Shown: positions 20,072 through 62,011 of the stretch, piece after piece
Numbering within the stretch: the stretch's first letter is position 1
Layout of the letters: every line of letters begins with the position of its first letter
Assembly (NCBI GenBank): GCA_021773835.1
Contig: JAJFJQ010000035.1
Location: forward strand, 183,213 to 247,212
Length of the DNA stretch: 64,000 nucleotides
Direction: 5' to 3'
Source: Gammaproteobacteria bacterium
Lineage (GTDB): Bacteria > Pseudomonadota > Gammaproteobacteria > Ga0077536
Translations under genes and position numbers: made by a program
The notes under the pieces: model-generated
Database searches by the model: none
The model's input: the letters and a program-made list of their open reading frames with translations, nothing else
What the model was told of the DNA's origin: nothing

Positions 20072-22150
20072 GTGAGTCGATTAATTCGGTACCGACACTC
20101 CCGCGTCTGGCTGCCGTGCGTAATACGATGGTTTGTGATGGCGATTCTGTGCGCAGCCGTCGTCTCTATCAGTGCCGAAATCAATACTTCCGATACCGAG
20201 TCTATATCGGCTGATCCTATTAACCTTGAGTTCAGCATCGGCGACATAGAATTTTCCCCATCATTCCGGTTCAACGGAATCAGCGTACGTTGCACCATGT
20301 TGGCTTATGCATCAAATCAACTTCAATGCACTGAGGCGACGCTTCTCATCAGAGATTCGCCGATTGGGCCAATCTCACTTGCTGCGCGATTGACCTGGTA
20401 TCCAATCACTCGACGTTGGACCGTTGACGCGAACGGCGCTGTAGGCACGGCCAATAAACTCGAATTTCATTTAGATAGAACCGGTGACGATACGCATCTT
20501 CTCGTCGATCTCAGACAATTTGATATCACACTTTTGCCAAGGATTATTGGATCGCTAGTGCCTGAATTGGCGGAATACGATGTCGATTCCGGGACGCTGG
20601 ATCTGAAAGCGGATTGCCAGTTTAAAGCAAGCGTTGTTACTACATGTGATGCCGACGGCGAACTTGTAAACCTCAACGTAAATGGGGTTAACGTCGCAGA
20701 AAACGTGGCAATGGCCATTGCGTTTGCCTACGTCGCCGGCGGTGCCGGAACGCACCTCGACTTCAACATGTCTCTTCAGCGTGGTGCAATTTACGTCGAA
20801 CCAGGTTTCACACTAGGTGGAATAAACCCCGGGTTTCTAGTCACCGTAACTGATACTCCGATCGATGTGGCCGGTCGCGTGGAGTTGATGCGAACAGGCG
20901 AGGTCCGAGTCTTGGGTGCCGATCTATTGCATCGGGGGATTGTAGAAATGCATTTCGCCGGTGATCTCACGGTGACGCCGTCGCTTAACTGGCGCCTTCT
21001 CGATTTTTCCCTGCATGCAAAAGATGTGGCGGAGTTCTACAAAACTTATATGTTGCCCATTGCATTGAATACCGCATTCAGCTCGCTCGAAACGGCCGGT
21101 AGCGTGTCGGTGAACGTAATCGGATCCGATGATGTCATCACCGACTTCGATCTTCAGTTTGGCAAGGTTTATATCGACGATGAGGCAGGCCGATTCTCGC
21201 TGTACGACCTTGACGGCGACATCAAGTTGCATTCCGGTGACGAGATTTTGACGTCGCACCTCAACTGGATTGGTGGTGCTGTGTACCGGATTAACATTGG
21301 TCCCGGTCGAATCGACTGGGAATCCGCCGCAGGCAACTTAAAGATCGCTAGTTGGCAAGATGTGACCATTTTTGATGGTGAATTTCGCATGGATACGCTC
21401 GAGATAACGGATTTCAGCACAGAAGATGCAAAAGTCGTGCTATCCGGTAGTCTGAGCCCGATCACCTTGAGCGCATTGACATCGGCGTTTGGTTGGCTAC
21501 CGCTGTCGGGCAAGCTCGCCGGTACGATTCCACGGCTAAGCTACGCTGCGGACCGTCTCGAAATGGACGGTGACCTACATGTTAATGTCTTTGACGGCGA
21601 CATCTTTATTCGAGATCTCATGGTGGACAAGTTGTTCTCGACGCTGCCGCTGCTAACGGCAAACATCAGCCTTCGGCAGTTGGATTTGGAAGAAATCACT
21701 CACGCCTTATCGTTCGGGAACATCAGCGGGCGCGTGGACGGAAAGATAGCCGATCTTGAGCTGCAAGCGTGGCGCCCGATCCATTTTGATGCGGAGATTT
21801 CGACACCAGTAGATGACGACAGCCCGCACCGAATCAGTCGCCAAGCGGTCGATAATTTGGGGCGTTTAGGTGCCGGTACCGGCGGCGCGCTGTCGCAGGG
21901 GTGGCTGCGATTGATTCCCAATTATTCGTACGGTCGACTCGGTCTTAGTTGCCGATTATTGAATGGGTACTGCTCGATGGGTGGGGTGCAAGACGCATCC
22001 GATGGTGGTTTCTACATTCTTACGCGGGGCGGTATATTGCCGCCATGGATCGGTATCAAAGGATCGGGGCGCAGAATAAAATGGCAAACCTTGGTTGACG
22101 GTATTAAGCAGATTTCAGCAGGAAATTGGGAACTTGATGTCGGACTGTGA
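20072..22150 (+). CDS. Large YdbH/AsmA-like beta-rich envelope protein
   Basis: N-terminal hydrophobic anchor, long alternating beta-strand pattern, C-terminal dicarboxylate-transport/YdbH-like segment (VFDG...I.DL, ISRQAVDNL); directly upstream of a YdbL-like gene. Confidence 0.65.
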   Translation: MSRLIRYRHSRVWLPCVIRWFVMAILCAAVVSISAEINTSDTESISADPINLEFSIGDIEFSPSFRFNGISVRCTMLAYASNQLQCTEATLLIRDSPIGPISLAARLTWYPITRRWTVDANGAVGTANKLEFHLDRTGDDTHLLVDLRQFDITLLPRIIGSLVPELAEYDVDSGTLDLKADCQFKASVVTTCDADGELVNLNVNGVNVAENVAMAIAFAYVAGGAGTHLDFNMSLQRGAIYVEPGFTLGGINPGFLVTVTDTPIDVAGRVELMRTGEVRVLGADLLHRGIVEMHFAGDLTVTPSLNWRLLDFSLHAKDVAEFYKTYMLPIALNTAFSSLETAGSVSVNVIGSDDVITDFDLQFGKVYIDDEAGRFSLYDLDGDIKLHSGDEILTSHLNWIGGAVYRINIGPGRIDWESAAGNLKIASWQDVTIFDGEFRMDTLEITDFSTEDAKVVLSGSLSPITLSALTSAFGWLPLSGKLAGTIPRLSYAADRLEMDGDLHVNVFDGDIFIRDLMVDKLFSTLPLLTANISLRQLDLEEITHALSFGNISGRVDGKIADLELQAWRPIHFDAEISTPVDDDSPHRISRQAVDNLGRLGAGTGGALSQGWLRLIPNYSYGRLGLSCRLLNGYCSMGGVQDASDGGFYILTRGGILPPWIGIKGSGRRIKWQTLVDGIKQISAGNWELDVGL

Positions 22151-22191
22151 GCCGTAGTAATCGTAGAATTTGGAGTAAACGGAGAGTCGTT

Positions 22192-22806
22192 ATGAATATT
22201 CGTCACCTTTTCGCCGTCGGCTTAGGCGTATGTCTGGTGGCATGCGTTACGGTCAATGTCTATTTTCCAGAATCCGCGGCCGAGCGCGCCGCCGACATTT
22301 TTATCAAGGATGTTTATGGTGGCGATGAGAGCGACCATGACGGCGCATCAGCGCCAAGCGGCAGTCCGCAAGGTGCAATCGATTCCAAGGCGTCGTATCT
22401 ATTTGCCTTATCGTCTTGGGTAGGGAATATACTGATACCAAGTGCGGCCGCACAACCAATTGATATCAGTATCTCAACCCCTGGTATCAGCGCGTTGCAG
22501 AACGCTATGGAACAACGGCATCGTCAGTTGAAGGCGCACTACAACTCCGGCGCGATAGGGATGTCCGCCTCGGGATTAATAATCCTACGTGATCCCAAGC
22601 TTGTCGGGTTGCAACAGCGAAACCAGATAAAGAAACTTGTAGTCGACGAAAATGCCGATAGAAATCGACTCTATGGTGAAGTTGCCAAAGCCAATGGCCA
22701 CCCGGAATGGGAAAAAGACATTCGCGAAACGTTCGCGGCACGTTGGGTCGGCAATGCGCCCGCTGGATGGTGGTACCAAAGTGGTGGTAGTTGGAAGCAA
22801 AAGTAA
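22192..22806 (+). CDS. YdbL/DUF1318 family lipoprotein
   Basis: Lipobox LVAC, VTVNVYFP..AAERAAD, EN.DR..LY.E.A.AN and GWWYQ; ATG 22192 after a GGAGAG SD. Confidence 0.8.
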   Translation: MNIRHLFAVGLGVCLVACVTVNVYFPESAAERAADIFIKDVYGGDESDHDGASAPSGSPQGAIDSKASYLFALSSWVGNILIPSAAAQPIDISISTPGISALQNAMEQRHRQLKAHYNSGAIGMSASGLIILRDPKLVGLQQRNQIKKLVVDENADRNRLYGEVAKANGHPEWEKDIRETFAARWVGNAPAGWWYQSGGSWKQK

Positions 22807-23675: not shown

Positions 23676-24986
23676 ATGGGACGGCAGAAAAGGCGCGAGC
23701 CGTATGTCATCAATATTGAAAATTTGTCACATGAGGGTCGTGGAATTGGGCGCCTTAACGGCAAAACTGTATTTGTCAGTGGCGCATTGCCGCAAGAGAC
23801 TGTACTAGCCCGAACAACTAAACGACGCGGTAGTTTTGATGAGGCAATTGCGCTTGAGATCCAGGTCGAAAGCGCCGATCGCATCGCGCCAAAATGTCCT
23901 CATGCAGGTGTTTGCGGCGGTTGTTCACTACAGCATTTGCCAGCTGAAAAACAAATTGAACACAAACAATCGGTTCTTTTCGAATTGCTTGCTCATCACG
24001 CAGGAGTCACCCAGTTTGTGCAGTTCCCGGCGCTCCTCGGTCCACAGTGGGGCTACCGACGCAAGGCGCGCCTTGGGGTAAAGTTCGTGCCAAAGAAGGG
24101 TGGGGCCTTAGTCGGATTCAGAGAAAAGGCTGCGCCCTACATCGCGGATATTAACGGTTGCGCCGTGCTGGATCCGGTCGTCGGGGGGAGGCTACTGGAG
24201 TTACGCCAGCTCATCGATGGATTGTCGATCCGGGATCGGATCCCTCAAATCGAAGTTGCTATCGGGGACAGCACCGCGGCCCTCGTATTTCGACATTTGG
24301 ATCCGTTTAACGACGCTGACATCGCCGCCTTCGCACAATTTCAAGAAAGTTCCGGGATCGGTATCTATTTACAACCGGGCGCTGAGAATTCGATGCATCG
24401 ACTAAACGACGCGACGGCGCTACTCAATTACAGTGTTGATGGCCTTCATTTCGACTTCTTGGCAACCGATTTCACCCAGGTCAATGGCGCAATGAACCGC
24501 GCTATGGTCAATTTGGTCCTGGAGCAATTGCAATTAAGCTCATCGGATCGTGTATTGGATTTGTTTTGCGGCCTTGGAAATTTTTCTCTACCGCTGGCGC
24601 GACCCGCCGCGCACGTGGTGGGAATTGAAGGTAGTGAAGATTTGGTATGTCGGGCACGGGAAAACGCGCTCAAGAACAACATCGATAATGTCAGTTTTCG
24701 CCGGGCGGATCTGGCTAACGCCGATGACGTAGCGAAGATAGACATGCGCGGTGTCACCAAATTGCTGCTTGATCCGCCGCGTACCGGGGCCGACGAGATA
24801 GTCAAAGGGCTCGACCTTCGGGACTTGAACCGCATCGTTTATGTCTCATGTAATCCGGTAACATTGGCCCGAGATACAAAAAGCATTCTCTCCAGCGGCG
24901 ATTTCGAACTTATTGGTGCTGGTGTTATGGACATGTTCCCGCATACGTCTCATGTTGAATCAATCGCGGTATTCGAAAATCGGTAA
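23676..24986 (+). CDS. rlmD: 23S rRNA (uracil1939-C5)-methyltransferase
   Basis: TRAM domain, CPHAGVCGGC Fe-S motif, DLFCGLGNF, DPPRTG, YVSCNP and DMFPHT.HVES. Confidence 0.96.
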   Translation: MGRQKRREPYVINIENLSHEGRGIGRLNGKTVFVSGALPQETVLARTTKRRGSFDEAIALEIQVESADRIAPKCPHAGVCGGCSLQHLPAEKQIEHKQSVLFELLAHHAGVTQFVQFPALLGPQWGYRRKARLGVKFVPKKGGALVGFREKAAPYIADINGCAVLDPVVGGRLLELRQLIDGLSIRDRIPQIEVAIGDSTAALVFRHLDPFNDADIAAFAQFQESSGIGIYLQPGAENSMHRLNDATALLNYSVDGLHFDFLATDFTQVNGAMNRAMVNLVLEQLQLSSSDRVLDLFCGLGNFSLPLARPAAHVVGIEGSEDLVCRARENALKNNIDNVSFRRADLANADDVAKIDMRGVTKLLLDPPRTGADEIVKGLDLRDLNRIVYVSCNPVTLARDTKSILSSGDFELIGAGVMDMFPHTSHVESIAVFENR

Positions 24987-26466
24987 GCGTTACGTAATTC
25001 TCATTGTTCTGGTTGCCGTAATCGGAGGATGTGGTCAAGCGAATGACGCTGCAATACGATTCGGATTAGCGACTCCTCCGGTCACACTCGATCCCCGCTA
25101 TGCTACCGATGCGACCTCGTATCGAATAATGCGGTTGATTTATCAGGCGCTAATCGATTTTGACGATAGCCATCGTGCAATACCAGCGCTAGCCACCTGG
25201 GAGGCGATTTCACCGTTACATTACCGATTCCTACTGCAGGACTCCCAACGTTTTCATGACGGCAGTACACTCGATAGCGACGACGTCATTGCGACCTATC
25301 GATCTGTGCTCGATCCGCGAACGGCGTCTCCACATCGGGGATCCCTAGCCAATATCGAATCGATCGAGGCGCCGACGCCGCTCACGGTCGATTTCTATCT
25401 CAAACAAGCCGATCCATTGTTTCCTGGCCTGCTTGTGCTTGGCATTATGCCGGCGGAGAAGGTGCGCGATACCTACGCTAGCGTGGAGCAACCGGTTGGT
25501 TCTGGACCATTTGCCGTGGAGGGGGTGCCAAAGGAGGCGCGATTACGGCTTCGTCGCCGCGCCGATGGACAATTGGTCGATTTCATTACGATTCGAGACG
25601 CGACCGTGCGTGCATTAAAAATACTGCATGGTGAGATCGATTTGATGCAAGGTTCGATGACACCTGAATTAGTCGACTGGTTGCACGGCAATAAGCATAT
25701 CGTGTCGGATCACCGACCAGGGACAACGTTTACTTACCTTGGATTCAATCTCAACGATCCATCTGTTGGTGACCTGCGGGTGCGTCGCGCAATCGCACAC
25801 GCGATCGATAGACGGTCACTAACGAAATATATGTTTGGCGATCGAGCTCGCCTCGCGCACGGAATTTTCACACCGAAGCATTGGGCTGGACATTCAAAAT
25901 TGCAAGCCGTTGATTTCGATCCTGCGCGTGCGCGTGAGCTACTCGCGGATTTGGGGTACAGCGACTCGAGACCGCTGCAATTAAGCTACAAGACGTCGAG
26001 CGACCATTTCAGGCTGCGCATTGCGACGGCGATTCAGGATCAGTTGGCCGATGTAGGGATCGAGCTTACGATATCGAGTTACGATTGGGGTACATTCTAC
26101 GCCGATGTAAAGGCCGGCAGGTTTCAACTGTACAGCCTCTCATGGGTCGGTCTTAAGCAGCCGGATATCTTTCGATATGCGTTCCATAGTTCATCTGTAC
26201 CACCGGAAGGTGCTAATCGAGGGCGCTACCACAGCGCCGCTGTCGATCAGATGATCGAGGTGGCTGAGTCGACAAAGGATCTGGCGACTCGTGCTGCTTT
26301 TTATCGGAATATTCAGCGACAGCTTCTGGTCGATTTACCCTACGTTCCACTATGGTATGAAGACACGACATTGATCGTGCGTGATTCCATTGTCGGATAT
26401 GACACCGGACTCGACGGTTATTATGATGGATTGGCGAAGACTCACAGGGTTACGACTAATGACTAA
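24952..26466 (+). CDS. Peptide/nickel ABC transporter substrate-binding protein (family 5), predicted lipoprotein
   Basis: Lipobox-like IGGC, TLDPR, FHDGS.L...DV, P.GSGPF and VRRAIAHAIDR. Confidence 0.9.
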   Translation: MLNQSRYSKIGKRYVILIVLVAVIGGCGQANDAAIRFGLATPPVTLDPRYATDATSYRIMRLIYQALIDFDDSHRAIPALATWEAISPLHYRFLLQDSQRFHDGSTLDSDDVIATYRSVLDPRTASPHRGSLANIESIEAPTPLTVDFYLKQADPLFPGLLVLGIMPAEKVRDTYASVEQPVGSGPFAVEGVPKEARLRLRRRADGQLVDFITIRDATVRALKILHGEIDLMQGSMTPELVDWLHGNKHIVSDHRPGTTFTYLGFNLNDPSVGDLRVRRAIAHAIDRRSLTKYMFGDRARLAHGIFTPKHWAGHSKLQAVDFDPARARELLADLGYSDSRPLQLSYKTSSDHFRLRIATAIQDQLADVGIELTISSYDWGTFYADVKAGRFQLYSLSWVGLKQPDIFRYAFHSSSVPPEGANRGRYHSAAVDQMIEVAESTKDLATRAAFYRNIQRQLLVDLPYVPLWYEDTTLIVRDSIVGYDTGLDGYYDGLAKTHRVTTND

Positions 26467-26944
26467 CCGTTTTGTCGAAATTTGTTTGTCAGAACAAACG
26501 CTAAACCTGTACGAACGGGACCGTGTCTTCCTGACGTTTCAGGTCTCTACCGCTGCCAACGGACCCGGCGAGCAAATGGACAGCGAGTGCACCCCGCGCG
26601 GGCGCCACGTGATCGATGAGAAAATTGGCCATGGCTGCGCTCCCAACACCGTATTTGTCGGTCGAGTTGCAACTGGCGAAATCTACGATGAAAAACTTGG
26701 TCGAATGCATCCTCGCAGAGATTGGATCCTGACTCGGATCCTGTGGTTACGCGGGCTTGAAGATGGCCGCAACAACGGCGGCAATGTCGATACCAAAGCG
26801 CGCTATATCTACATTCATGGATCGCCCGACAGTACGGCGATGGGTATCCCAGGGTCTCACGGCTGCATTCGCTTACACAATCACGATGTCACCCAGTTGT
26901 TTGATCTCGTTGAGGTTGGGACGCTAGTGAATGTCCTCGATTAA
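26459..26944 (+). CDS. YkuD / L,D-transpeptidase-family protein without a signal peptide
   Basis: Motifs TPRG.H, WILTRILWL.G.E and YIYIHGSP.....G.PGSHGCIRL (His/Cys intact); ATG 26459 overlaps the stop of the binding-protein gene. Confidence 0.9.
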   Translation: MTNRFVEICLSEQTLNLYERDRVFLTFQVSTAANGPGEQMDSECTPRGRHVIDEKIGHGCAPNTVFVGRVATGEIYDEKLGRMHPRRDWILTRILWLRGLEDGRNNGGNVDTKARYIYIHGSPDSTAMGIPGSHGCIRLHNHDVTQLFDLVEVGTLVNVLD

Positions 26945-27040
26945 GCGTTTTCTGATTTTAACATGGTTAACCATAACCTATTGATTAATAATAAAATATG
27001 TCGTTTCCGTAATCTGCTTGGAAAAAAAATTCTGCACGCG

Positions 27041-27068
27041 TGTCAACCGAAAGTCGATTGATGCGTTG
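27041..27068 (+). promoter_or_regulatory. Putative ECF-sigma promoter
   Basis: TGTCAACC...ATGCGTTG, i.e. AAC-N16-CGT, about 50 nt upstream of ATG 27116. Confidence 0.6.
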
Positions 27069-27115
27069 TTAGGGATGGAGAGATACAAAACTTCCTAATA
27101 ACGCAGGAGAACGAC

Positions 27116-27808
27116 ATGAAATCAACATCAATCATTTTGCTCGGTTTCGTCGCGGTGGCGTGTTTTCAGTCCCAAGCAATCTATGCGGATCCGGGCGACG
27201 TAATCGATGAACGTCTTGACCGGCGCGGAGACCGCATAGATGAGCGGCTGGATGCAAAGGGTGACCGGATCGAGCAGCGGCTAGACAATAAGGGTGATCG
27301 GATTGAAGACCGCTTTGATCGCAGGGCGGATCGTGCGCGGGATGCCGGAAAAGATGGCCTCGCCGATCGTCTGGAAGCGAAGGGTAATCGCATAGACAAT
27401 CGTCTGGATCGCAAGGGCGATCGAATTGAGAATCGATTGGACCGTCGTGGCGATCGGATTGATCGTCGTCTGGACCGCAAGGGTGATCGGCTCGAGCGGC
27501 GTTACGACAACCACCACGGCAACAACGATCAGGGCAACTATAATAGACCGGGCTACGACCGTGATCGCGTGGCTAATCGCATCGACAAGCGCGGCGACCG
27601 TATTGAACGGCGCGCGGACAGGCGCGGTGATCGGGTTAACCGTCGCTTGGATCGACGCTCCGATAGGGCGCTTGCCAGAGGTAACGATCGTCGCGCAGGA
27701 CGTCTTGACCGTGCCGGCGACCGCGCAAATCGACGTATCGACCGACGCGGTAAGCAGGCCAACAAGCGTCACGACCGAAGAGCGAACCGCGTTGCAAATC
27801 GGCGCTGA
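27116..27808 (+). CDS. Secreted Arg/Asp-rich 11-residue repeat protein
   Basis: AGGAG SD, Sec signal peptide (..QAIYA|DP), then repeats of G-D-R-I-D/E-x-R-L-D-R-K/R. Confidence 0.85.
   Translation: MKSTSIILLGFVAVACFQSQAIYADPGDVIDERLDRRGDRIDERLDAKGDRIEQRLDNKGDRIEDRFDRRADRARDAGKDGLADRLEAKGNRIDNRLDRKGDRIENRLDRRGDRIDRRLDRKGDRLERRYDNHHGNNDQGNYNRPGYDRDRVANRIDKRGDRIERRADRRGDRVNRRLDRRSDRALARGNDRRAGRLDRAGDRANRRIDRRGKQANKRHDRRANRVANRR
27194..27781 (+). repeat. Coding 33-nt tandem repeat units (about 13 recognisable hendecads in two modules)
   Basis: GDVIDERLDRR / GDRIDERLDAK / GDRIEQRLDNK / GDRIEDRFDRR ... GDRANRRIDRR; degenerate at the DNA level. Confidence 0.85.
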
Positions 27809-27892
27809 GGTGGCACCAATAGACGCAGGTGGGTATTGGATCCGGCATGTATAGTTGGTGATTGACCGGCGTCGGCCGACTGGAGGAACGGT

Positions 27893-28453
27893 CTGGATAA
27901 TTCGCAGGCGCTTAACAAATTCTTGGCAGGTATCGAGCGCCGCGCATTTCGGATGTCAGAAATTGCAACCGGAAATCGGGAGGATGCGCTCGATATCGTT
28001 CAAGATGCGATGATTAAGCTAGTCGACAAATATTCGGACCGCGGGCCTGACGATTGGGCACCGTTGTTCTACCGTATACTGCAGAGCCGGATATTGGATT
28101 GGCATCGGCGCACGACAGTCCGGCGGCGAGTTATGGGCTTCTTTCGTTCCGACAGTACCGAGGATACCGCAGGCGCCGACATTGAGGCTTATCCGGATAA
28201 CGAAAGTCGGCAGCCCGAGCGTCAATCGGAAAACGACCAGTTAATGCAGAGACTCGAGCCAGCGTTGGCTGCACTCCCACTGCGCCAGCAACAAGCGTTT
28301 TTAATGCGGATGTGGGAAGGGTTCGATGTGCGGCAAACCGCAACCGCGATGAGATGTTCCGAAGGAAGTGTCAAGACGCATTATTCACGTGCGCTTAAAG
28401 CGTTAAGAATGACTCTGCAAGAAGCTAACGGAGCAGACGATGAATCGAAGTAA
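27893..28453 (+). CDS. ECF RNA polymerase sigma factor (probable CTG start at 27893; track start 27923)
   Basis: Region 2 DALDIVQDAMIKL; region 4 LPLRQQQAFLMR...ETA-like...SEGSVKTHYSRA; GGAGG SD at 27882-27886. Confidence 0.9.
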   Translation: MDNSQALNKFLAGIERRAFRMSEIATGNREDALDIVQDAMIKLVDKYSDRGPDDWAPLFYRILQSRILDWHRRTTVRRRVMGFFRSDSTEDTAGADIEAYPDNESRQPERQSENDQLMQRLEPALAALPLRQQQAFLMRMWEGFDVRQTATAMRCSEGSVKTHYSRALKALRMTLQEANGADDESK

Positions 28454-28781
28454 CGAGACGCTCGTCGAGCAATGGCGCGAAGTGCTCGATACCGACGCGG
28501 AAAACATCGATGCGCGAACAGTTGCTCGACTGGCGCAGATTCGACGCAATGCAGTTTCGCGGCGCGACGTCCGGTCTACGCTACCACGATTCGCCCCTGC
28601 GATTGCTTTCGCGACGTCGGCGATTATGCTCGCGATCTTGTTACGCGTACCTGACGGATCGATACATGTATTAGACCCCGACGTTGTAATTTTCGAAATC
28701 GTTCTAGCTGACAGTGACCTCGAACTGATCGAAGATCTAGAGTTCTACCGCTGGCTGGATGCCAATGGAAACGCGGGGTAG
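28440..28781 (+). CDS. Putative membrane anti-sigma factor (DUF3619-like)
   Basis: ARLAQIRRNA helix, one TM segment, C-terminal DLELIEDLEFYRWL; overlaps the sigma stop. Confidence 0.75.
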   Translation: MNRSNETLVEQWREVLDTDAENIDARTVARLAQIRRNAVSRRDVRSTLPRFAPAIAFATSAIMLAILLRVPDGSIHVLDPDVVIFEIVLADSDLELIEDLEFYRWLDANGNAG

Positions 28782-28992
28782 TCGCTCATGGGCGCTTTTC
28801 TGTGTCGCTGTTTTTTTCTTGGCCAGCGCTGCTGCAGAGGAGTTTCCGGAGCTAGAGTTGCTCGAGTATCTGGCCGACTGGCAGGACGCGGATGGCGCCG
28901 TACTCGATCCAAGAATGTTCGACGACGACCCGCGTGCAGAGCCCGTGCCGGCGTCCGAAGACATGTCGAGAGTTCCCGATGCGTTTGAGTAG
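28765..28992 (+). CDS. Small exported acidic protein
   Basis: Signal peptide ending AAA|EE; mature part acidic (PELELLEYLADWQDADG..LDP); overlaps both neighbours. Confidence 0.65.
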   Translation: METRGSRSWALFCVAVFFLASAAAEEFPELELLEYLADWQDADGAVLDPRMFDDDPRAEPVPASEDMSRVPDAFE

Positions 28993-29608
28993 CGCAATCT
29001 TGTTCGTAGTGATCAGTTACGTCGGCTCTTGTCTGGCCGCTGACCCCAAATCGATCCCGTGGGCGGACCTCGGCGGCGAGGAGCAAAGGATCCTTGGGAA
29101 AGCGCAACCGAACTGGGACGACTACTCGGTAGAGCGTCAGCAAAAGTTGCTCGCCGGCGCACGAAAATGGAAGTCGCTTTCACACCCAGAGCGACAGACG
29201 ATGGAACGCAATTTGGCCAAGCTCAAGCAGATGGAGCCGGCGCGTCGAAAACAGGTATTACAGCGTTTGCAGCGATTTAAGTCATTGCCGGCCAAAGAGC
29301 GCGCGCGACTACGTGAATCCTTCCGCGCTTACAAGCGACTACCTACCGAGCGACGCCAGGAATTGCGACAGAAATGGCGCAAGAAAACCCCGGCAGAACG
29401 TCAAAGGTTTCGGAGCGAATGGAAACGTAAGCGATTAGATCGCCGCCGCGATGTCAATAATCAACGTAGAGATAGACCCGGTGTAATCCGTGATCGCCAA
29501 CGCCCCAATGATACTCCGCGCAAACGTTGGCAGCGGCAGGGGAAGCGGAGTGATTCTAAGGCGCGGCAGCAGCGTAATCGGGCACGAGGCGGGGTCCGGA
29601 AAGACTAA
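28979..29608 (+). CDS. DUF3106-like exported basic helical-repeat protein
   Basis: Signal peptide; five 18-residue W/F/Y-x-x-L-x-x-x-(E/R)-R/Q repeats then 15-mers; basic low-complexity tail. Confidence 0.78.
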   Translation: MRLSSAILFVVISYVGSCLAADPKSIPWADLGGEEQRILGKAQPNWDDYSVERQQKLLAGARKWKSLSHPERQTMERNLAKLKQMEPARRKQVLQRLQRFKSLPAKERARLRESFRAYKRLPTERRQELRQKWRKKTPAERQRFRSEWKRKRLDRRRDVNNQRRDRPGVIRDRQRPNDTPRKRWQRQGKRSDSKARQQRNRARGGVRKD

Positions 29609-29643
29609 TTACGATTAGGTCCCGTGATTCGGTTCAATTGAGA

Positions 29644-30147
29644 TTACGGATCCGTGCCGCCAGACGATTGTTGCACCAGGTGCTTAGCAAAGCGTTTTAT
29701 TTGCAGATCGTATAGCGCCAGCTCGCCGCCGGTTTTTATCGCCGCAATTGCGAGTCTGCCGACTAGCATGAGGAGCAAGATCCCAATCACCCACGCAACG
29801 AAATACGATAGGCGAAAACCCAATGCGTCATTCACCTCGCGGAGGCGAGCGCTACTCGCCAATCTTGCTTCCTCGGAGTCGCTAGATGAATCTGCAGCTC
29901 GGGGCTTTTCAGCCGCCGAGAGTGCCTTGTCCAGGTTGGAGCCTTTTTCGATCGCGCGCGCGAGCCGCTCGATGTTCTGCGGTTGCTGATAGAGGGACCA
30001 AGCTTCGTTAATTACCTTTAACCCGATCCATAAGCCGACGAACATCAAGATAAATCCGACGATTCGTACAATGAGCTGGGTTATTTGTGTGGTGTTGTCT
30101 AACCAACGATTCTCTTGGTCAACATCGTCGAATTGATAGCGGGCCAC
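29644..30147 (-). CDS. Hypothetical two-TM membrane protein
   Basis: 167-aa ORF with two clear hydrophobic helices flanking a soluble loop; fills the gap between the ECF cassette and the permeases. Confidence 0.7.
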   Translation of the reverse strand: MARYQFDDVDQENRWLDNTTQITQLIVRIVGFILMFVGLWIGLKVINEAWSLYQQPQNIERLARAIEKGSNLDKALSAAEKPRAADSSSDSEEARLASSARLREVNDALGFRLSYFVAWVIGILLLMLVGRLAIAAIKTGGELALYDLQIKRFAKHLVQQSSGGTDP

Positions 30148-30317
30148 TGATTATTCCCTGTGGAGTTGAAAAAAGAGCGGGCCAACTCTATCACAGCTAT
30201 AGGCGATCGACTCAAGAAATGACGTCGTCGGTGGTAGTCCAAGCTTAGTTTTGCTGGGCATGGCTGTTCGAGATAAGCTCTACGGGTGCTGCCTGACGAA
30301 TCGTTGCTCAAATCACC

Positions 30318-31238
30318 ATGGGATCACTAGCTGCTCATAGACTTGTTACCGCAGCGATCGTGCTTCTCGGTGTCTCGTCGATTACCTTTTTCCTACTGCA
30401 TTTAGTTCCAGGTGATCCGGTGGAGGTGATGTTGGGCGAATCGGCAAATATCGCTGATCGCGCACAACTTCGCGCCGAGCTTGGGCTCGATGCTCCGCTC
30501 CTTCAACAGTGGATGACGTTTCACAAAGGCTTGCTGACATTCGACTTTGGCAGCTCGCTGTATTCGAAAAAACCGATCGCGGCAGTGCTCGCAGAACGTA
30601 TCCCGTGGACGTTAATTCTCGCGGTTGCCAGTCTCTGCATCGCGATTCTTATCGCAGTCCCTTTGGGTGTGTTGGCTGCGTTGAGACCAAATACGTTGTG
30701 GGATTCGGTCGCCGCGACTGTGTCTCTACTCGGCGTATCGATTCCGAATTTTCTGCTCGGGCCGCTGCTGATCATTATATTTTCTATTGGACTCGGCTGG
30801 TTCCCCGTGAGTGGAACGGAGCGCATCACCTCGATCGTGCTACCCGCATTGACGCTCGGCGCATCATTGGCTGCGATACTGTCGCGCATGATTCGGGCGT
30901 CGTTGCTTGAGGTGTTGTCGGAAGAATATATCGTCTCGGCCCGGGCGCGAGGCCTTGGCGCGCTAGTGGTCGTCGGCTATCACGCGATGCCGAACGCCGC
31001 GCTTCCGATTTTAACGATTTTAGGTCTCCAACTCGGTGCGTTGTTAGGTGGCGCCGTAATTACCGAGATGATTTTCGCGTGGCCGGGAGTCGGGCAATTG
31101 ACAATTGAGGCGATACAGCGTCGTGATTATCCTTTGGTGCAGGCATGCGTGTTGGTTATTAGTTTTGCCTACGTAGCGGTCAACACGCTCACTGATCTCG
31201 TCTATGCCCGCGTTGATCCACGGATCAGGATGCAGTAG
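30318..31238 (+). CDS. Peptide/nickel ABC transporter permease (DppB/OppB-like)
   Basis: PGDPVE.MLG, EAA loop EEYIVSARARGL and E.IFAWPGVG......I.RRDYP.VQ. Confidence 0.93.
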   Translation: MGSLAAHRLVTAAIVLLGVSSITFFLLHLVPGDPVEVMLGESANIADRAQLRAELGLDAPLLQQWMTFHKGLLTFDFGSSLYSKKPIAAVLAERIPWTLILAVASLCIAILIAVPLGVLAALRPNTLWDSVAATVSLLGVSIPNFLLGPLLIIIFSIGLGWFPVSGTERITSIVLPALTLGASLAAILSRMIRASLLEVLSEEYIVSARARGLGALVVVGYHAMPNAALPILTILGLQLGALLGGAVITEMIFAWPGVGQLTIEAIQRRDYPLVQACVLVISFAYVAVNTLTDLVYARVDPRIRMQ

Positions 31239-32047
31239 TGCGGGTCGCGACAATAATGAGCATAGTGGTTGTCGGCTCATGGCTGACCGTCGCACTTCTA
31301 TCACCATTTGTCGTCGGAGAAGTCAACGCGATCAATCTCGAGCGCTTGTTCTCCGGACCGTCGAGCAGCGCGATATTCGGTTTTGATGATCTAGGCCGTG
31401 ACATCGGGCCGAGGATCCTCCGGGGTGCGACGGTATCTTGTACGGTTGCATTTTTTGTCGTCACCATATCAGTAGTGATCGGTACGACGTTCGGGATTTT
31501 TATTGCCTGGTACGGTGGCTTGGTCGATCTCATCGGTGTGCGTGTGATGGACGTGTTTCTTGCATTTCCGGGTATTTTACTGGCGATTGCATTGGCCGCG
31601 GTCCTAGGTCCAGGGGTCGAGAACGTTTTGATCGCTTTGTCGATTGTCAGCTGGGTGGGCTTTGCCCGCCTGAGCCGTGCGCAAACATTGAGTATTAAGC
31701 ATCGTGACCACGTCACCGTCGCTCAAGCGCTGGGTACGCCGGTATTCACCATATGTCGCCGTCACATTCTTCCCTTGATAGTGGCACCAATTATCGTTGA
31801 GGCGACGTTTGCCATTGCCGCTGTGATCATTGCGGAAGCTGGGTTGTCATTCCTCGGTCTGGGGGTGCAACCGCCGACCCCATCTTGGGGAGCGATGATT
31901 AAAGAAGGTACGCGATACCTATTGATCGCCCCGCATATGGCTCTTGGTCCGGGCTTGGCGCTGTTTTCTATCGTGATCGCCATCAACGCGCTCGGTGACC
32001 GACTCCGAGATAGCTTGCAAATCAAGCGCGGCGCGTTCCAAAATTGA
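31238..32047 (+). CDS. Peptide/nickel ABC transporter permease (DppC/OppC-like)
   Basis: FGFDDLGRD, D.FLAFPGILLAI, EAGLSFLGLGVQPP.PSWG and GDRLRD. Confidence 0.93.
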   Translation: MRVATIMSIVVVGSWLTVALLSPFVVGEVNAINLERLFSGPSSSAIFGFDDLGRDIGPRILRGATVSCTVAFFVVTISVVIGTTFGIFIAWYGGLVDLIGVRVMDVFLAFPGILLAIALAAVLGPGVENVLIALSIVSWVGFARLSRAQTLSIKHRDHVTVAQALGTPVFTICRRHILPLIVAPIIVEATFAIAAVIIAEAGLSFLGLGVQPPTPSWGAMIKEGTRYLLIAPHMALGPGLALFSIVIAINALGDRLRDSLQIKRGAFQN

Positions 32048-32078
32048 ACTCACTTCTCCCTCGGAGCGTGTAAGCAAC

Positions 32079-33137
32079 ATGACCCTTGGACCGTTGATGA
32101 CCGACTTTGATGGGCTTGAGTTGGATAGTGTCGATCGCGAAATATTGAGCCACCCCCTAATCGGGGGGGTCATTTTATTTTCACGTAATTATGCCGACCC
32201 CGAGCAGATCCGCGCGGTAACCGATGAGTTGCACGCGTTACGCTCTCCGGAGCTGTTGATTGCGGTTGACCACGAAGGCGGGCGAGTTCAGCGTTTTCGA
32301 AATGGCTTCACCGAACTACCAGCGGCTGCGATTATTGGCCGGGTGTACGACGACGACCCCGCCTTGGGCCTTGCATTTGCCGAACAATGTGGCTGGTTAA
32401 TGGCGGCGGAATTACGCAGCGTAGGTGTTGATTTCAGTTTTGCACCGGTGCTCGATCTCAGTAATCCGGCGAGCCGCATCATCGACGATAGGGCCTTCCA
32501 TCAAGACCCACATTGTGTGGCGCGGATTGCTCACGCGTACGTGAGAGGAATGCACAGTGCCGGTATGGCTGCAGTCGGAAAACATTTTCCCGGTCACGGT
32601 ACCGTAGCGGCCGATTCGCATTTGGAGTTGCCGGTCGATAAACGGAGTTATTACGATATCGCCAATAGCGACCTCATTAGCTTTCGCTTGTTAGCCCCGG
32701 ATATTGAAGGCGTAATGCCGGCGCACATTGTCTACCCTGAGGTCGACAATGAGCCGGCCGGTTTCTCGTCGGTCTGGGTGAAAAGCGTATTGCGTCAAGA
32801 GCTGGATTTTCAGGGGATTGTTTTCAGCGATGACCTTAACATGGCAGGGGCATCGGAAGTTGGTGGCGTCGTTGAACGCGCCTCCATAGCAATTTCCGCA
32901 GGTTGCGATGTCATTCTTCTGTGCAACGACAGGCCTGGCACTGAGCAATTACTTTCAAACTTTAGCGCACAAGTCGAACCAGTAACCCAGGTTCGGCTTA
33001 TGCGAATGCATGGCAAAGGCGAGCCCGGACACATCGAGGATCTCGCTGACGACGAGAGGTGGTTAACGGCTCGAACCCATATCGCTCAAGTTCATCAAAC
33101 ACGAATGCTCGACCTCGGCGACGATATGCTGGGTTAA
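32079..33137 (+). CDS. nagZ: Beta-N-acetylhexosaminidase
   Basis: Motifs GGVILFSRNY, VDHEGGRVQRFR, KHFPGHG...DSH and FSDDL.M.GA. Confidence 0.96.
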   Translation: MTLGPLMTDFDGLELDSVDREILSHPLIGGVILFSRNYADPEQIRAVTDELHALRSPELLIAVDHEGGRVQRFRNGFTELPAAAIIGRVYDDDPALGLAFAEQCGWLMAAELRSVGVDFSFAPVLDLSNPASRIIDDRAFHQDPHCVARIAHAYVRGMHSAGMAAVGKHFPGHGTVAADSHLELPVDKRSYYDIANSDLISFRLLAPDIEGVMPAHIVYPEVDNEPAGFSSVWVKSVLRQELDFQGIVFSDDLNMAGASEVGGVVERASIAISAGCDVILLCNDRPGTEQLLSNFSAQVEPVTQVRLMRMHGKGEPGHIEDLADDERWLTARTHIAQVHQTRMLDLGDDMLG

Positions 33138-33143
33138 CGAATA

Positions 33144-34067
33144 TTGAATTGCATCTATCGTCATATCCGTAAGCCTAGCTGTACTGGATTAATCCTTTTC
33201 TCCTTGAGTCTGTGCCAGCCGGCAGCGGCGCTTGATTGCACGAAACGTATGCAATCGGCGGCGCCATTTTCAGCCACGGAATTGACGCATGGCAATCTGT
33301 GGCGTGTTGAAACTAGCGACGGCAAGACCAATCACATTTTTGCGACCATACACCTATCGGATCCGCGCATCAGGCAATTGCAGCAGCACGTTGACGAAGC
33401 CCTGAACTCCAGTAATAGCTTCGGCATGGAGGTTGTGCTCGACCGTGATGCCCTCACATCGATGTCGAGTGCGATGCGGTTGGTTAATGGTCAAAGCTTA
33501 AAAATGCTACTTCAGCCGGAATTATTTGCCGCCACGGCGTTGCTGCTCGGTCGCTATGGGGTTCCTGTTCAGGCTACGGAGCGGCTGAAGCCGTGGGCGG
33601 CATTTGTTACCTTGTCACTGCCGCCCAGGCAGTCCGGCGTGCCGCTGGATATGATGCTTATGATCAAGGCGCAACGCGCTGGAATTCCCGTTTTCGGATT
33701 GGAAACCGTTGACGAGCAAATAGGGGTGTTCGACAACTTGAGCGATGCCGACGAAGTAGATTTACTGCGTGAATTGGTGTGCCACTACAACGAATATCAA
33801 TCCGACATTGCAACGATGACCGAACACTATATAGCTGAGGACTTGGATGCGGTGATGCAGATGGCGCTTCGCTACCGGTCGCCGTTGCAAGATCGATTTT
33901 TAGACGTATTATTGTGGCAGCGTAACCGCCGGATGGTTGCGAATATGGTGCCCCATTTAGAAACCGGTGGAACGTTCATCGCAGTCGGTGCCTTACACCT
34001 ACCAGGGCCCCGTGGCGTCCTAGACTTGCTCAGTAGACGCGGCTACACAATCGAAGCAATCCGCTGA
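33144..34067 (+). CDS. TraB/GumN family protein
   Basis: Signal peptide, ATIHLSD, GLETVDEQI, RNRRM and AVGALHL.G..G. Confidence 0.88.
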   Translation: MNCIYRHIRKPSCTGLILFSLSLCQPAAALDCTKRMQSAAPFSATELTHGNLWRVETSDGKTNHIFATIHLSDPRIRQLQQHVDEALNSSNSFGMEVVLDRDALTSMSSAMRLVNGQSLKMLLQPELFAATALLLGRYGVPVQATERLKPWAAFVTLSLPPRQSGVPLDMMLMIKAQRAGIPVFGLETVDEQIGVFDNLSDADEVDLLRELVCHYNEYQSDIATMTEHYIAEDLDAVMQMALRYRSPLQDRFLDVLLWQRNRRMVANMVPHLETGGTFIAVGALHLPGPRGVLDLLSRRGYTIEAIR

Positions 34068-34080
34068 TATAACTCCATCG

Positions 34081-34914
34081 ATGCAAATACCATTTACAAA
34101 AATGCACGGACTAGGGAATGATTTTGTCCTTCTGGATGAACGAGATTTCTCCTTCGGACTAAACGCTGCACAACTTGCGCTGATAGCCGACCGCCGATTT
34201 GGGATCGGTTGCGATCAGATCCTCACACTAGAAGCGTCGTCATTACCGGGAACACTTGGTCACTATCGAATTTTTAATGCCGACGGAAGTGAAGCAGAAC
34301 ATTGCGGTAACGGGGTTCGGTGCGTCGCGCACTACCTTCGTGATAGTGGAGACGTTCAAGGCGAGAAACTCGCATTGGAGGTTCGTGGGGCTGCTCTCGA
34401 ACTCACGTTCGAATCCGATGGGTTGGTTCGGGTAGATATGGGACCGCCCTCATTTGTGCCATCCGATATCCCAATTTCGACGGACACCATGGGACAGCGA
34501 TACGAAGTGGACGTTAATGGGGAGGCCTGTTCATTCGGTTGTGTCTCGATCGGCAATCCGCATGCGACGATGATTGTTGATGAAGTCGCCGTTGCCGACG
34601 TGATCGCAATCGGGTCGGCATTGCAAGATCATTGGTTTTTCCCACAAAAGGTTAACGTTGGATTCATGCAAGTTGTCGATCGTGACCGAATAAGATTGCG
34701 CGTTTTCGAGCGCGGCGTGGGGGAGACCTTAGCGTGTGGGACCGGCGCTTGCGCGGCAGTTGCGATCGGGGTGTTATGGGAGCAACTCGATGGCTCGGTC
34801 GATGTCGAGCTGCCGGGTGGCACTTTGCAAATTGAATGGTCTGGCATAGCTACGGACCCATTGTGGATGACGGGACCGGCCGAAACCGTATTCAAAGGTA
34901 TAATAGATCTATGA
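34081..34914 (+). CDS. dapF: Diaminopimelate epimerase
   Basis: Motifs FTKMHGLGNDF, EHCGNG.RC and ERGVGETLACGTGACA. Confidence 0.98.
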   Translation: MQIPFTKMHGLGNDFVLLDERDFSFGLNAAQLALIADRRFGIGCDQILTLEASSLPGTLGHYRIFNADGSEAEHCGNGVRCVAHYLRDSGDVQGEKLALEVRGAALELTFESDGLVRVDMGPPSFVPSDIPISTDTMGQRYEVDVNGEACSFGCVSIGNPHATMIVDEVAVADVIAIGSALQDHWFFPQKVNVGFMQVVDRDRIRLRVFERGVGETLACGTGACAAVAIGVLWEQLDGSVDVELPGGTLQIEWSGIATDPLWMTGPAETVFKGIIDL

Positions 34915-35633
34915 AACTGCAAGGTGATGATGAGGTAGGGGGCGTGCAAGCCAGCGTGAGTCCGGAGGTAGTCGCTGAGTATCTGCGAGCGCATCCGGAT
35001 TTTTTCGAAGTCTTTCCCGATGTGCTGCGCGAGATTGAGATAACGCATAGTGCAGGCGACGCAGTATCGTTGCTTGAACGGCAGGTTTCAGCACTGCGTG
35101 ACGACAATAGGCGAATGAAAGTTCGGTTTGAAGAACTTGTCGCGTTGGCAACGTCGAACGAGAATTTGATCAAACGTATTCACCAGCTCGCGCTTGCCTT
35201 GATGGAAGCGGCCGGTCCAGAGGCGATATTTGCGACCTTAAGCGGTCGTCTTGCCCAGGAGTTTGATGCGGATCGCGTGCGCACCGTCGTCTGTGCAAAT
35301 CCCGCGTTTGTGGATTCGAATTTGGTACCCGAATTTGTCGGAGCAAACTGGCCAGGTAGAACGCTATTCACCGATGTGCTGAATGCAAAGGCGCCGAAAT
35401 GCGGCGAATTGACCCAAGCTCAACGCGCCTCTTTGTTTCCGAGCGATACTGACGTAATCGGATCAGCAGCAGTCCTACCACTATCGGGTAAGGGATGGGA
35501 TGGGTTATTGATAATTAGTAGCGAAGATGCATCGCGATTTCGTCACGATATGGGGACTGACTTTTTGGCTTACCTGGGAGATATCGTTTCTCTCATCGTC
35601 GACCCCTGGGTCACAAGAGAAGAGCCGGGTTGA
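34911..35633 (+). CDS. DUF484 (YigA) family protein
   Basis: VAEYLRAHPDFF, AVSLLERQV..LR and F...MGTDFL.YLG; lies between dapF and xerC. Confidence 0.9.
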   Translation: MKLQGDDEVGGVQASVSPEVVAEYLRAHPDFFEVFPDVLREIEITHSAGDAVSLLERQVSALRDDNRRMKVRFEELVALATSNENLIKRIHQLALALMEAAGPEAIFATLSGRLAQEFDADRVRTVVCANPAFVDSNLVPEFVGANWPGRTLFTDVLNAKAPKCGELTQAQRASLFPSDTDVIGSAAVLPLSGKGWDGLLIISSEDASRFRHDMGTDFLAYLGDIVSLIVDPWVTREEPG

Positions 35634-36538
35634 TTGCAGCAAGCCGGCAAGCGCTGCTCGATGAGGTGGACGAGTTTCTCGTTACCTTGACAGGGCATTC
35701 TCGCAATACTCAAGTCGCTTACCGCCGGGATTTGAATCAGTTATCGACCTTCGTATCTGAAAACGATTTAACGCATTGGGGATCGGTTGATACGCAAGCA
35801 GTGCGGAGCTTCATTGCATTCCAGCACCGTAACGGCAAGAGCAGTCCGAGCCTAGCCAGGATGCTATCTTCAATACGCGCATTTTTTACTTACTTGGTTG
35901 ATCGCGGGCGCATGGATGGTAATCCGGCCAAGGATGTGCGAGCGCCAAAACAATCGCGACATCTGCCGAGCGCGCTGGATGTTGATCAAGCTGGAAAGTT
36001 GCTAGCGGCGAAGCCGCAAAGTTTTCTCGCGATACGTGATCTGGCGATGTGGGAATTAATGTACTCGAGCGGGTTAAGGGTATCTGAGTTGGTCGGCTTG
36101 GATTCAGGAGATCTGGATCCAAGTGATGGCCACGTCCGGGTAGTGGGGAAGGGAAATAAAGAACGCATCGTGCCGGTTGGCCGTATGGCCTGGGATGCGG
36201 TAAATAGATGGAAGCAATTTCGCCAAACCTGCATAAAAGATGACGTGACTGCGCTTTTCATCAGCCAGCGTGGAACGCGTTTAACACCGCGCTCAGTGCA
36301 AAAGCGGCTGCGCGCATGGGCACTTAAGCAAGGGCTTGAAACCCATGTCCATCCGCACATGCTTAGGCATTCGTTCGCAACACACATGCTGGAGTCGTCT
36401 GGAGATCTACGGGCCGTCCAAGAGTTGTTAGGCCACTCCAATATCGCTACGACTCAAATTTACACCCATCTAGACTTTCAGCATTTAGCAAAGGTCTATG
36501 ATGCGGCTCATCCGCGCGCGCGGCGCAAACCGCGCTAG
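35630..36538 (+). CDS. xerC: Tyrosine recombinase XerC
   Basis: [28 protein letters not shown] and LGH...[23 protein letters not shown]; chromosomal dapF context. Confidence 0.96.
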
Positions 36539-42042: not shown

Positions 42043-42795
42043 CGGTGGAGCGCTCGAACCTCCGAAGCCTTGGTACTTTTTAATATATTCGCTCAGCTTC
42101 ACGATCCGGACGCCGGCAGCGGCAGGGTCCCAATTTCGAAATACAGCAAGGCTTAGCGGATGTGGATGGGCGATGCCCAAGGCATGTCCATTTTGTTTGG
42201 CCTTGGCGACTAAATTGTTGAGCTGTTTTTCGATATGTTCTCTCGTCTGAACATTATCCAGAAAAACATCACGAAAACTCGCAGCGATCTGCTCTCGCAC
42301 GGCCCATTTCAGGGCTACGCTGCTACCGGTAGTTCGAGAATCAACAAAGAACAATCCACCGCGTTGACGGATCGCGTGCATTAACCAACGCATATGTTCT
42401 GGCTCACGCGTTAGTCGACTACCCATATGGTTATTGACCCCAACCGCATGAGGAACGGCAGCAATCGATTCGCGGAATGATTTCTCTATTTCATTTTGTG
42501 ACATACCAACGAGCAACGCGCCCGGACCGAGTAGATGATTGTCGTGATCGGCTTCCATTGGGAGATGCACCAGCACGTCTTTGTCGAGCGAGTTGGCCAT
42601 GCGCGCAAGGCCTTTTGCGTGAGGGGAAAACGGTAACATTGCGTAGGCAAACGCATGCGGAATTTCCACCGCCGCGCGACCCGTCTCATAGGAATTTCCG
42701 ATGTCATCGATGATTAACGCTACTTCGGGCGGGTTGGGCGGATCGTTTGAAAATCCAATGCAGCTCGCGATTACAACGGCAGCAACGCTAAACAT
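41956..42795 (-). CDS. Divergent polysaccharide deacetylase family protein (YibQ-like)
   Basis: Motifs ALIIDDIG, VHLPME, GVNNHMGS, FFVDSRT, RDVFLDN and GIAHPHP. Confidence 0.92.
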   Translation of the reverse strand: MFSVAAVVIASCIGFSNDPPNPPEVALIIDDIGNSYETGRAAVEIPHAFAYAMLPFSPHAKGLARMANSLDKDVLVHLPMEADHDNHLLGPGALLVGMSQNEIEKSFRESIAAVPHAVGVNNHMGSRLTREPEHMRWLMHAIRQRGGLFFVDSRTTGSSVALKWAVREQIAASFRDVFLDNVQTREHIEKQLNNLVAKAKQNGHALGIAHPHPLSLAVFRNWDPAAAGVRIVKLSEYIKKYQGFGGSSAPPLQSSGFSAAECGNHGDHPKPTQDPYTKW

Positions 42796-42839
42796 CTACG
42801 GAACCGCATCTCTGTACGCGTTCATGTGCGCGAACAAAC

Positions 42840-44189: not shown

Positions 44190-44331
44190 CTCCTTGGGCC
44201 GCTTCACAGTCGAACCCACAGCGCGATCGCCTTGCGATTCAATGCCAATTCCATAGGCGGCAATTTTCCAGAATAGTGACATCAAGTACCCCTTCTTACG
44301 AATTATGCAGGCATTTAAAGATTATTGACCG

Positions 44332-45525: not shown

Positions 45526-45648
45526 TAAGCCATATTCTAGCAGTACCTCCGATCGAAACTATTGACTTGAGCGTGCGCGCCAATGATTAGAAGTTGTGGG
45601 CATACAAAATGCGGATGGCGGGTCGGATCGAGGGAGTGCTGCCGCTGA

Positions 45649-59116: not shown

Positions 59117-59194
59117 CTCGGAGTCAAGATCGGACGCTAGACGGATTCGCGAAGGCGATTTCTCGGTGATCGATTACGACAACCACCGACCCAC

Positions 59195-60499: not shown

Positions 60500-60505
60500 C
60501 TCGGA

Positions 60506-61462: not shown

Positions 61463-61501
61463 CGGGTTATAGCGGCAATCGTCTATCTGACGTGGCGTCG
61501 T

Positions 61502-62005: not shown

Positions 62006-62011
62006 GGTCGA

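Follow-up and report, generated by a model that had tools for sequence, protein, structure and literature searches.

Muropeptides are known to be taken up through AmpG and, in two cases, through ATP-binding cassette (ABC) systems, each a general peptide transporter that serves an additional binding protein. Both ABC cases are PepT-family importers of cell-wall fragments, MppA-Opp of Escherichia coli (PMC3173086) and YepA-YejBEF of Agrobacterium (PMC9790009), and YepA was reported to be restricted to the Alphaproteobacteria (PMC9790009). MppA binds the murein tripeptide via R402, R411 and D417, the last of which anchors the free N-terminus as in OppA (PMC3173086). For the trimming of peptides, ElsL of Acinetobacter baumannii is a cytoplasmic YkuD-fold L,D-carboxypeptidase with 788 orthologues, mostly in the Gamma- and Betaproteobacteria; nagZ, synteny and an ABC-transporter context are absent from the paper describing it (PMC8649774). 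Here, a 64-kb stretch of contig JAJFJQ010000035.1 from a Gammaproteobacteria bacterium (assembly GCA_021773835.1; the window) was analyzed, which encodes a family-5 substrate-binding protein (SBP), an ElsL-type YkuD protein, two ABC permeases (genes permB and permC) and the β-N-acetylglucosaminidase NagZ. The linkage of these five genes was real and conserved in many Gamma- and some Betaproteobacteria, far beyond chance. No description of an SBP-ElsL-permease-NagZ cluster was found in the open-access full-text literature.

A sequence-only reading of this DNA had grouped the genes into one candidate peptidoglycan-recycling module, which would work independently of AmpG and LdcA. In the window, they fell into two blocks, SBP-ElsL and permB-permC-nagZ, about 3.4 kb apart, and the interval between the YkuD gene and permB (26945-30317) was filled by six other genes, one of them on the minus strand, which that reading had not mentioned. 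Within the blocks, the junctions were tight. The SBP stop codon (26464-26466) was part of an 8-nt overlap with the start of the YkuD gene (26459-26466), located inside the string ATGACTAA. The start of permC shared one base with the stop of permB, and the ATG of nagZ followed the permC stop by 31 nt on the same strand, in agreement with the sequence-only reading, in which DppB/DppC-like permeases run straight into nagZ. The synteny survey that the reading had called for was carried out and was positive. An alignment of ElsL relatives served to fetch 80 loci, one per species and each with flanks of up to 10 kb, onto which the window proteins were mapped by tblastn. These loci (numbered with the prefix L) were the best of at least 598 matches to the query alignment and not a random sample, and the frequencies are not population estimates. 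Some loci, titled as Enterobacteriaceae, Klebsiella, Gemmatimonadota and Myxococcota metagenome-assembled genomes (MAGs), probably represented mis-binned contigs, and no conclusion was based on them. SBP, ElsL, permB and permC were contiguous in 16 of the 80 loci, with nagZ next wherever the contig reached; these 16 came from Chromatiaceae/Chromatiales, Candidatus Thiodiazotropha, Sedimenticolaceae, a tubeworm symbiont, Thiotrichales, Granulosicoccaceae, a Legionellales MAG and Methylotenera. The same genes were split by insertions, as in the window, in eight loci. In another eight, SBP-ElsL was seen and the permeases were not found within the sequence covered, and five loci had the permeases without an intact SBP gene. 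Transporter genes were missing from the remainder, in which ElsL was directly followed by nagZ (8/80), had nagZ within 10 kb (3/80) or stood alone (32/80, 11 of these from Psychrobacter).

The spacing seen in the window recurred across the survey. The SBP stop and the ElsL start overlapped or were separated by no more than 10 nt in 27 of 33 loci, the distance from the ElsL stop to the permB start ranged from -8 to +23 nt in most of the compact loci, and permC was followed by nagZ in 22 of the 23 loci that extended far enough. Sampling centred on the other components gave the same picture. When the SBP was used as the centre, a YkuD gene was next in 3/3 places; in one of them (L087), succinate dehydrogenase genes replaced rlmD upstream, and permB-permC and a glycoside hydrolase family 3 (GH3) gene were located 3.6 kb downstream. 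When the permeases were used, the order permB-permC-GH3-TraB was found in 3/3 places, with SBP-YkuD and an extracytoplasmic function (ECF) sigma-factor module upstream. Because the same genes adjoined in dozens of species, including ones with different flanks, their linkage was beyond chance.

The YkuD protein belonged to the ElsL family and is a predicted L,D-carboxypeptidase. Its 161 residues carried a single Pfam domain, YkuD, across residues 4-159 (E 3e-22), with the catalytic motifs H120-G-S and S133-H-G-C136 intact; H120 and C136 were invariant in an alignment of 22 sequences. The N-terminus MTNRFVEICLSEQTLNLYERDRV, as read from the translation, was charged and contained no hydrophobic run. 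Intact catalytic residues, a missing signal peptide and a likeness to ElsL had all been put forward in the sequence-only reading and were upheld. The only strong NCBIfam match was the ElsL model NF040925 (E 1e-53, 181 bits), which was covered essentially at full length (positions 8-158 of 164), and the AlphaFold2 (AF2) model, with a mean predicted local distance difference test (pLDDT) value of 82.7, matched only YkuD/L,D-transpeptidase structures. The score of 181 bits was below the naming cut-off of 270 bits, which is of the “exception” type. The Psychrobacter proteins (211 bits), from the genus closest to Acinetobacter among those scored, and the proteins of six other taxa (171-205 bits) were also below it, so the cut-off appeared to name the Acinetobacter proteins only and not to delimit the wider family. 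The window protein agreed with the published description of ElsL orthologues, namely a BLAST relative of 105-200 residues without an export signal, transmembrane helix or peptidoglycan-binding domain (PMC8649774). The setting differed from that of A. baumannii, which imports through AmpG, and in loci of Psychrobacter, a member of the same family as Acinetobacter, ElsL was found with no SBP, permB, permC or nagZ nearby. In one lineage, a second, partial YkuD/ElsL-like frame of about 92 residues, 63% identical, directly followed the full ElsL gene (L011, 10480-10755, equal to L089, 480-758). At the other end of the cluster, NagZ scored 454 bits against the equivalog model NF003740 (cut-off 207) and also matched Pfam Glyco_hydro_3. 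The NagZ motif is KH(F/I)PG(H/L)GxxxxD(S/T)H, and the translation contained KHFPGHGTVAADSH.

The SBP was an exported cluster-C binding protein of the PepT family, as indicated by Pfam (SBP_bac_5, PF00496, E 3e-63), its N-terminal lipoprotein signal and its predicted fold. The N-terminus MLNQSRYSKIGKRYVILIVLVAVIGGC placed the lipobox cysteine at residue 27, which was invariant in 32 of 32 orthologues, and only 4-6 residues separated the lipidated cysteine from the first strand of the fold in all of them. The residue after the cysteine varied (G, A, S, T, E or D), so sorting to the inner or outer membrane could not be read from the sequence. All NCBIfam models of peptide-, nickel- and glutathione-binding proteins gave less than one third of their cut-offs; for the NikA/NikZ-type models, the values were 108-112 bits against cut-offs of 393-600. 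In a Foldseek search with the AF2 model (pLDDT 88.9), NikZ, an uncharacterised Bacillus protein, DppA, GbpA, MppA, AppA and binders of sialic acid or opines were about equally close at 19-25% identity. Template-modelling (TM) scores were 0.75-0.85 to NikZ, DppA and MppA, with NikZ on top (TM 0.85). Since these neighbours carry many different ligands, the fold did not discriminate the ligand of the SBP. The listed 60 best PDB sequence matches of the protein included no entry named YejA.

The ligand-binding residues of the characterised relatives were then located by alignment. In a HMMER alignment to the MppA structure 4toz, the anchors R402, R411 and D417 corresponded to V386, S395 and a gap, so the MppA signature was missing. 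In NikZ, nickel is held by H26 and the H480-H481 prong (bioRxiv 10.1101/2022.10.03.510666). These three ligands aligned with A54, Y490 and Y491 of the SBP, where G489-Y490-Y491 stood in place of the GHHG prong, and the NikZ signature was missing as well. In addition, R354 of the SBP was invariant and aligned with R344 of NikZ, the carboxylate-binding arginine of the family, and the aspartate that anchors the free peptide N-terminus in OppA and MppA was missing. The nickel importers NikABCDE/NikZ and the Staphylococcus aureus system of Opp2 (NikBCDE) and Opp5A (NikA) provided the nearest permease models and the nearest SBP fold, but their double-histidine prong and His26 were absent from the window protein.

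The two permeases were different subunits of the type found in PepT-family importers, each with a Pfam BPD_transp_1 domain, and permB also encoded the N-terminal domain. The EAA coupling loop of PermB was intact (EEYIVSARARGL), and the EAA-type motifs EEYIVSARARGL and DHVTVAQALG were kept in L022 and L064. The best NCBIfam match of PermB was Opp2B (346 bits, cut-off 350), and PermC matched Opp2C (248 bits) and NikC (236 bits); NCBIfam names Opp5A a nickel-binding protein and Opp2B and Opp2C nickel permeases. Against the OppB and OppC models, the pair reached 185 and 135 bits (cut-offs 388 and 433), and against YejB and the YejE-type model 112 and 89 bits (cut-offs 445 and 439). From the low OppB and YejB scores, the permeases were judged by sequence to be orthologous neither to OppBC nor to YejBE. 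The parallel with MppA-Opp and YejBEF-YepA drawn in the sequence-only reading did not extend to the MppA residues or to permease orthology. Like MppA in MppA-OppBCDF, the window SBP is a cluster-C protein that would deliver a cell-wall peptide to permeases of the PepT family for recycling, and like YepA-YejBEF, the window transporter would be an ABC importer that replaces or supplements AmpG in muropeptide uptake. However, MppA and YepA are orphan SBPs, of which the first works with the permeases and ATPases of Opp and the second with the Yej core, whereas the window SBP has permeases of its own and its ATPases are missing.

On balance, and with moderate confidence, we favour the view that these five genes constitute a module dedicated to taking up and trimming the products of peptidoglycan turnover. 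In what follows, ligand identity, metabolic direction and ATPase sharing are inferred. The lipid-anchored SBP would capture a carboxylate-bearing cell-wall fragment in the periplasm, and the likeliest ligand would be N-acetylglucosamine (GlcNAc)-anhydro-N-acetylmuramic acid (anhydroMurNAc)-tetrapeptide or a MurNAc-linked or free tetrapeptide. The retention of R354 together with the loss of the aspartate that anchors the N-terminus would be in keeping with a ligand in which MurNAc blocks the N-terminus, and co-expression with NagZ may point to a disaccharide-peptide substrate. A PermB/PermC heterodimer would translocate the fragment, driven by a pair of nucleotide-binding subunits whose genes lie at other places in the genome. 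Inside the cell, in the cytoplasm, NagZ would remove GlcNAc and the ElsL-type L,D-carboxypeptidase would remove the terminal D-Ala to leave a tripeptide stem that Mpl can re-ligate. The separation of the module into two blocks in this lineage would be the result of an insertion carrying the ECF sigma factor.

Several results weigh against this proposal. The structures closest to the SBP, at about 20-25% identity, have ligands as diverse as nickel-histidine, peptides, glutathione, opines and sialic acid. PermB came close to the cut-off of a model named “nickel ABC transporter permease”. In the 32 fetched loci with permeases, no ATPase gene was located beside them. Among 150 neighbouring open reading frames (ORFs) that were profiled, ampD, anmK, mpl and ldcA were not enriched near the operons. 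Finally, the stretch from a cysK-like gene through rlmD to dapF-xerC is a long run of conserved synteny among unrelated housekeeping genes, and rlmD also overlaps the SBP gene, which lowers the weight that gene order and overlaps would otherwise have. A stronger argument for the module is that SBP-ElsL and permBC-nagZ persisted where the flanks changed and that the transporter genes were present or absent together across the loci.

The same syntenic run underlies the first alternative, in which the transporter carries a cargo unrelated to peptidoglycan, such as nickel or a metallophore, glutathione, di- or oligopeptides or an opine-like compound, and its proximity to ElsL and nagZ is an inherited order within a housekeeping block. 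The best scores of both permeases on nickel-type models and the position of NikZ as the top structural neighbour of the SBP are in its favour, as are the annotation of the orthologues only as “peptide/nickel transport system” and the conserved order of the cysK-like gene, an RNase H-like gene, rlmD, dapF and xerC, which have no functional link. This explanation is unlikely, in our judgement, since all three nickel ligands of NikZ were replaced in the SBP, every equivalog model of binding proteins stayed below one third of its cut-off, and many lineages with different flanks would have had to keep the gene of a cytoplasmic recycling enzyme, overlapping codons included, between those of the SBP and the permeases. 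In a second alternative, the module would scavenge the cell-wall debris of other bacteria as nutrients or building blocks, and AmpG may still serve self-recycling. ATP-driven ABC importers with high-affinity binding proteins suit dilute external substrates, the carriers were largely Gammaproteobacteria from sediments, symbioses and groundwater, and the transporter was dispensable, being lost or pseudogenised while ElsL and nagZ stayed, which fits an accessory route. The present data do not separate scavenging from self-recycling, and the short lipoprotein tether of 4-6 residues would hold the SBP at a membrane surface either way; we rate scavenging as quite unlikely.

PepT-family importers have two ABC ATPase subunits encoded with their permeases, and this feature was found neither in the 64-kb window nor beside the permeases of the fetched loci. 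No LSGGQ-type signature was present in any of the six frames of the window, and Pfam scans of 40 of its 49 larger ORFs gave no ABC ATPase, in agreement with the earlier statement that the window holds no such subunits. For the last nine large ORFs (about 54946-63340), the stored Pfam hits of a metagenome contig matching the right end of the window likewise contained none. One ORF with a Walker A motif (6622-7326) was considered as an ABC ATPase and rejected because it was Hda. ABC ATPase motifs were found in seven ORFs among 87 loci, and ABC_tran was found in 3 of the 150 unassigned neighbouring ORFs profiled with Pfam; none of them adjoined the operons, and none of the ATPase ORFs inspected was of the Opp/Dpp type, except one located about 7 kb upstream in L028. 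That the permease genes are relics without a working transporter, for which the lack of any ABC ATPase in the window and beside the permeases could be cited, is very improbable, since no gene of the cluster was better conserved than the permeases (94% identity to L001 versus 81% for ElsL), since they kept their full length and their EAA loops in distant taxa and since truly decayed copies look different, with fragments only in L018. On the simplest interpretation, genes elsewhere in the genome would encode the nucleotide-binding subunits, which are perhaps shared. Opp2 and Opp5A are encoded at separate loci and set a precedent for sharing components between loci. Tentatively, the cluster could represent a third, independently recruited ABC route of peptidoglycan recycling, in which a dedicated Dpp/Nik-type SBP and permeases import anhydromuropeptides with ATPases that are always shared with another transporter. 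These transporter genes would be ancestral to much of the Gamma- and Betaproteobacteria and expressed together with ElsL and NagZ. We know of no described case of nucleotide-binding subunit sharing of that sort in the peptide-transporter family.

The distribution of the cluster bears on its history. With ElsL between the SBP and permease genes, the observed order cannot have arisen by one insertion into an ElsL-nagZ pair, and loss of the transporter from a five-gene cluster yields the order rlmD-ElsL-nagZ. On the 2.1-Mb gammaproteobacterial chromosome of L018 (9159-9711 and 12722-13699 of the locus), SBP, permB and permC were present as fragments only and ElsL and nagZ were intact, which looks like transporter decay in progress. 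In a neighbour-joining tree of ElsL, a weak tree built on 161 residues, the transporter-bearing loci were scattered among the ElsL-nagZ and ElsL-only loci. An ancestral five-gene cluster with repeated loss of the transporter would fit these patterns; alternatively, the cluster may have spread horizontally instead of being inherited from an ancestor.

The genes between the two blocks were not part of the transport and trimming module (Table 1). The repeat protein, which is secreted, consists of 230 residues with 11-residue repeats (RLDxKGDRIExR-like); it was kept only in the close relatives L001-L004 and gave weak apolipoprotein- or phasin-like matches. The ECF-sigma module (27923-29608) comprised the sigma factor (224 bits against PRK09047, cut-off 173), a DUF3619 gene, a 77-residue ORF (about 70 residues across the lineages) and a DUF3106 gene, and it was also found between ElsL and permB or nagZ in ten fetched loci (L007, L010-L013, L029, L032 and L088-L090). 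The membrane protein matched no Pfam family. A homologue directly preceded permB in 13 further fetched loci, and one preceded nagZ in L013. In L017, L020 and L058, the membrane protein occupied the same position without the ECF module, and in L005, the closest species-level relative by ElsL identity, ElsL adjoined permB and no ECF module was present. No common motif was evident across lineages in the region upstream of permB. An ORF of about 140 residues directly followed ElsL in six split or SBP-ElsL-only lineages (L007, L010, L012, L016, L085 and L086). Its stored Pfam match in L085 and L086 was Bac_globin, which was also found in 4 of the 150 profiled neighbouring ORFs.

Upstream, the rlmD stop was located 35 nt inside the SBP gene (24952-24986 common to both). 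The corresponding junctions in L001, L003, L085 and L086 were 35-nt or 4-nt overlaps or a 2-nt gap, and from these overlapping or near-abutting junctions, rlmD may be co-transcribed with SBP and ElsL. It preceded the SBP gene in most loci, the exceptions being L021, L025, L028 and L087. Downstream, a gene for a TraB/GumN-family protein with a signal-like N-terminus followed nagZ in the window and in at least 11 other loci, often with an MscS-type channel gene next, and it could be either part of the module or a neighbour only. A gene of about 360 residues after nagZ was suspected to encode AnmK, which was rejected because Pfam profiling identified it as the MscS channel. The sequence-only reading had pointed to dapF close behind nagZ. 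The gene was indeed there, after the TraB/GumN gene, but it heads an ordinary dapF-DUF484-xerC cluster, an arrangement also known from E. coli, and is therefore not evidence for the module.

Table 1. Positions of the SBP-ElsL and permB-permC-nagZ blocks and of the genes between and beside them in the window
Feature	Position	Strand	Assignment
rlmD	23676-24986	+	23S rRNA m5U methyltransferase; stored Pfam matches of orthologues TRAM and tRNA_U5-meth_tr
SBP	24952-26466	+	Family-5 (cluster C) substrate-binding lipoprotein, 504 residues
ElsL-type YkuD gene	26459-26944	+	161 residues, predicted L,D-carboxypeptidase
Secreted protein with 11-residue repeats	27116-27808	+	Signal-like N-terminus, repeat period of 33 bp
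ECF sigma factor	27923-28453	+	NCBIfam PRK09047
DUF3619 gene	28440-28781	+	Pfam DUF3619
77-residue ORF	28759-28992	+	Within the ECF-sigma module
DUF3106 gene	about 28979-29608	+	Pfam DUF3106
167-residue membrane protein	29644-30147	-	Divergent from permB
permB	30318-31238	+	DppB/NikB/GsiC-type ABC permease, 306 residues
permC	31238-32047	+	DppC/NikC-type ABC permease, 269 residues
nagZ	32079-33137	+	Cytoplasmic β-N-acetylglucosaminidase, 352 residues
TraB/GumN-family periplasmic protein	33144-34067	+	Pfam PF01963
dapF	34081-34914	+	Heads dapF-DUF484-xerC; stored Pfam match of relatives DAP_epimerase
DUF484, then xerC	34836-36538	+	XerC-type integrase; Pfam scan

The remaining genes of the window were housekeeping genes, and look-ups of the genes at its ends returned only housekeeping and sugar-nucleotide functions. 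Rfam gave zero matches across the window, and matches in a promoter and terminator scan were no more frequent than the shuffled expectation. Two further places in the window were related to the cell wall, both ordinary and without a link to the SBP/ElsL/permease module: an envelope cluster on the minus strand (41956-47208) with genes for a divergent polysaccharide deacetylase, an S41 tail-specific protease, an M23 (EnvC-like) peptidase and the phosphoglycerate mutase iPGM, and a gene for a LysM-domain protein (62159-63340) adjoining def-fmt-rsmB. Upstream of the RNase H-like gene, a 692-residue protein without a Pfam match was followed by a DUF1318 protein (20072-22806), and this pair was kept in several distant loci (L013, L017, L035, L038, L070 and L084).

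If the proposed module is correct, a dedicated importer linked to ElsL and NagZ would be a testable candidate for recycling in many uncultured and symbiotic Gammaproteobacteria, and the ElsL family with its 788 members would gain a genomic context. The consistent absence of ATPase genes raises a concrete question about whether ATPases are shared among peptide transporters. Recycling routes bear on β-lactam susceptibility and on the release of immunostimulatory fragments, and the map of these pathways therefore matters beyond the organisms described here.

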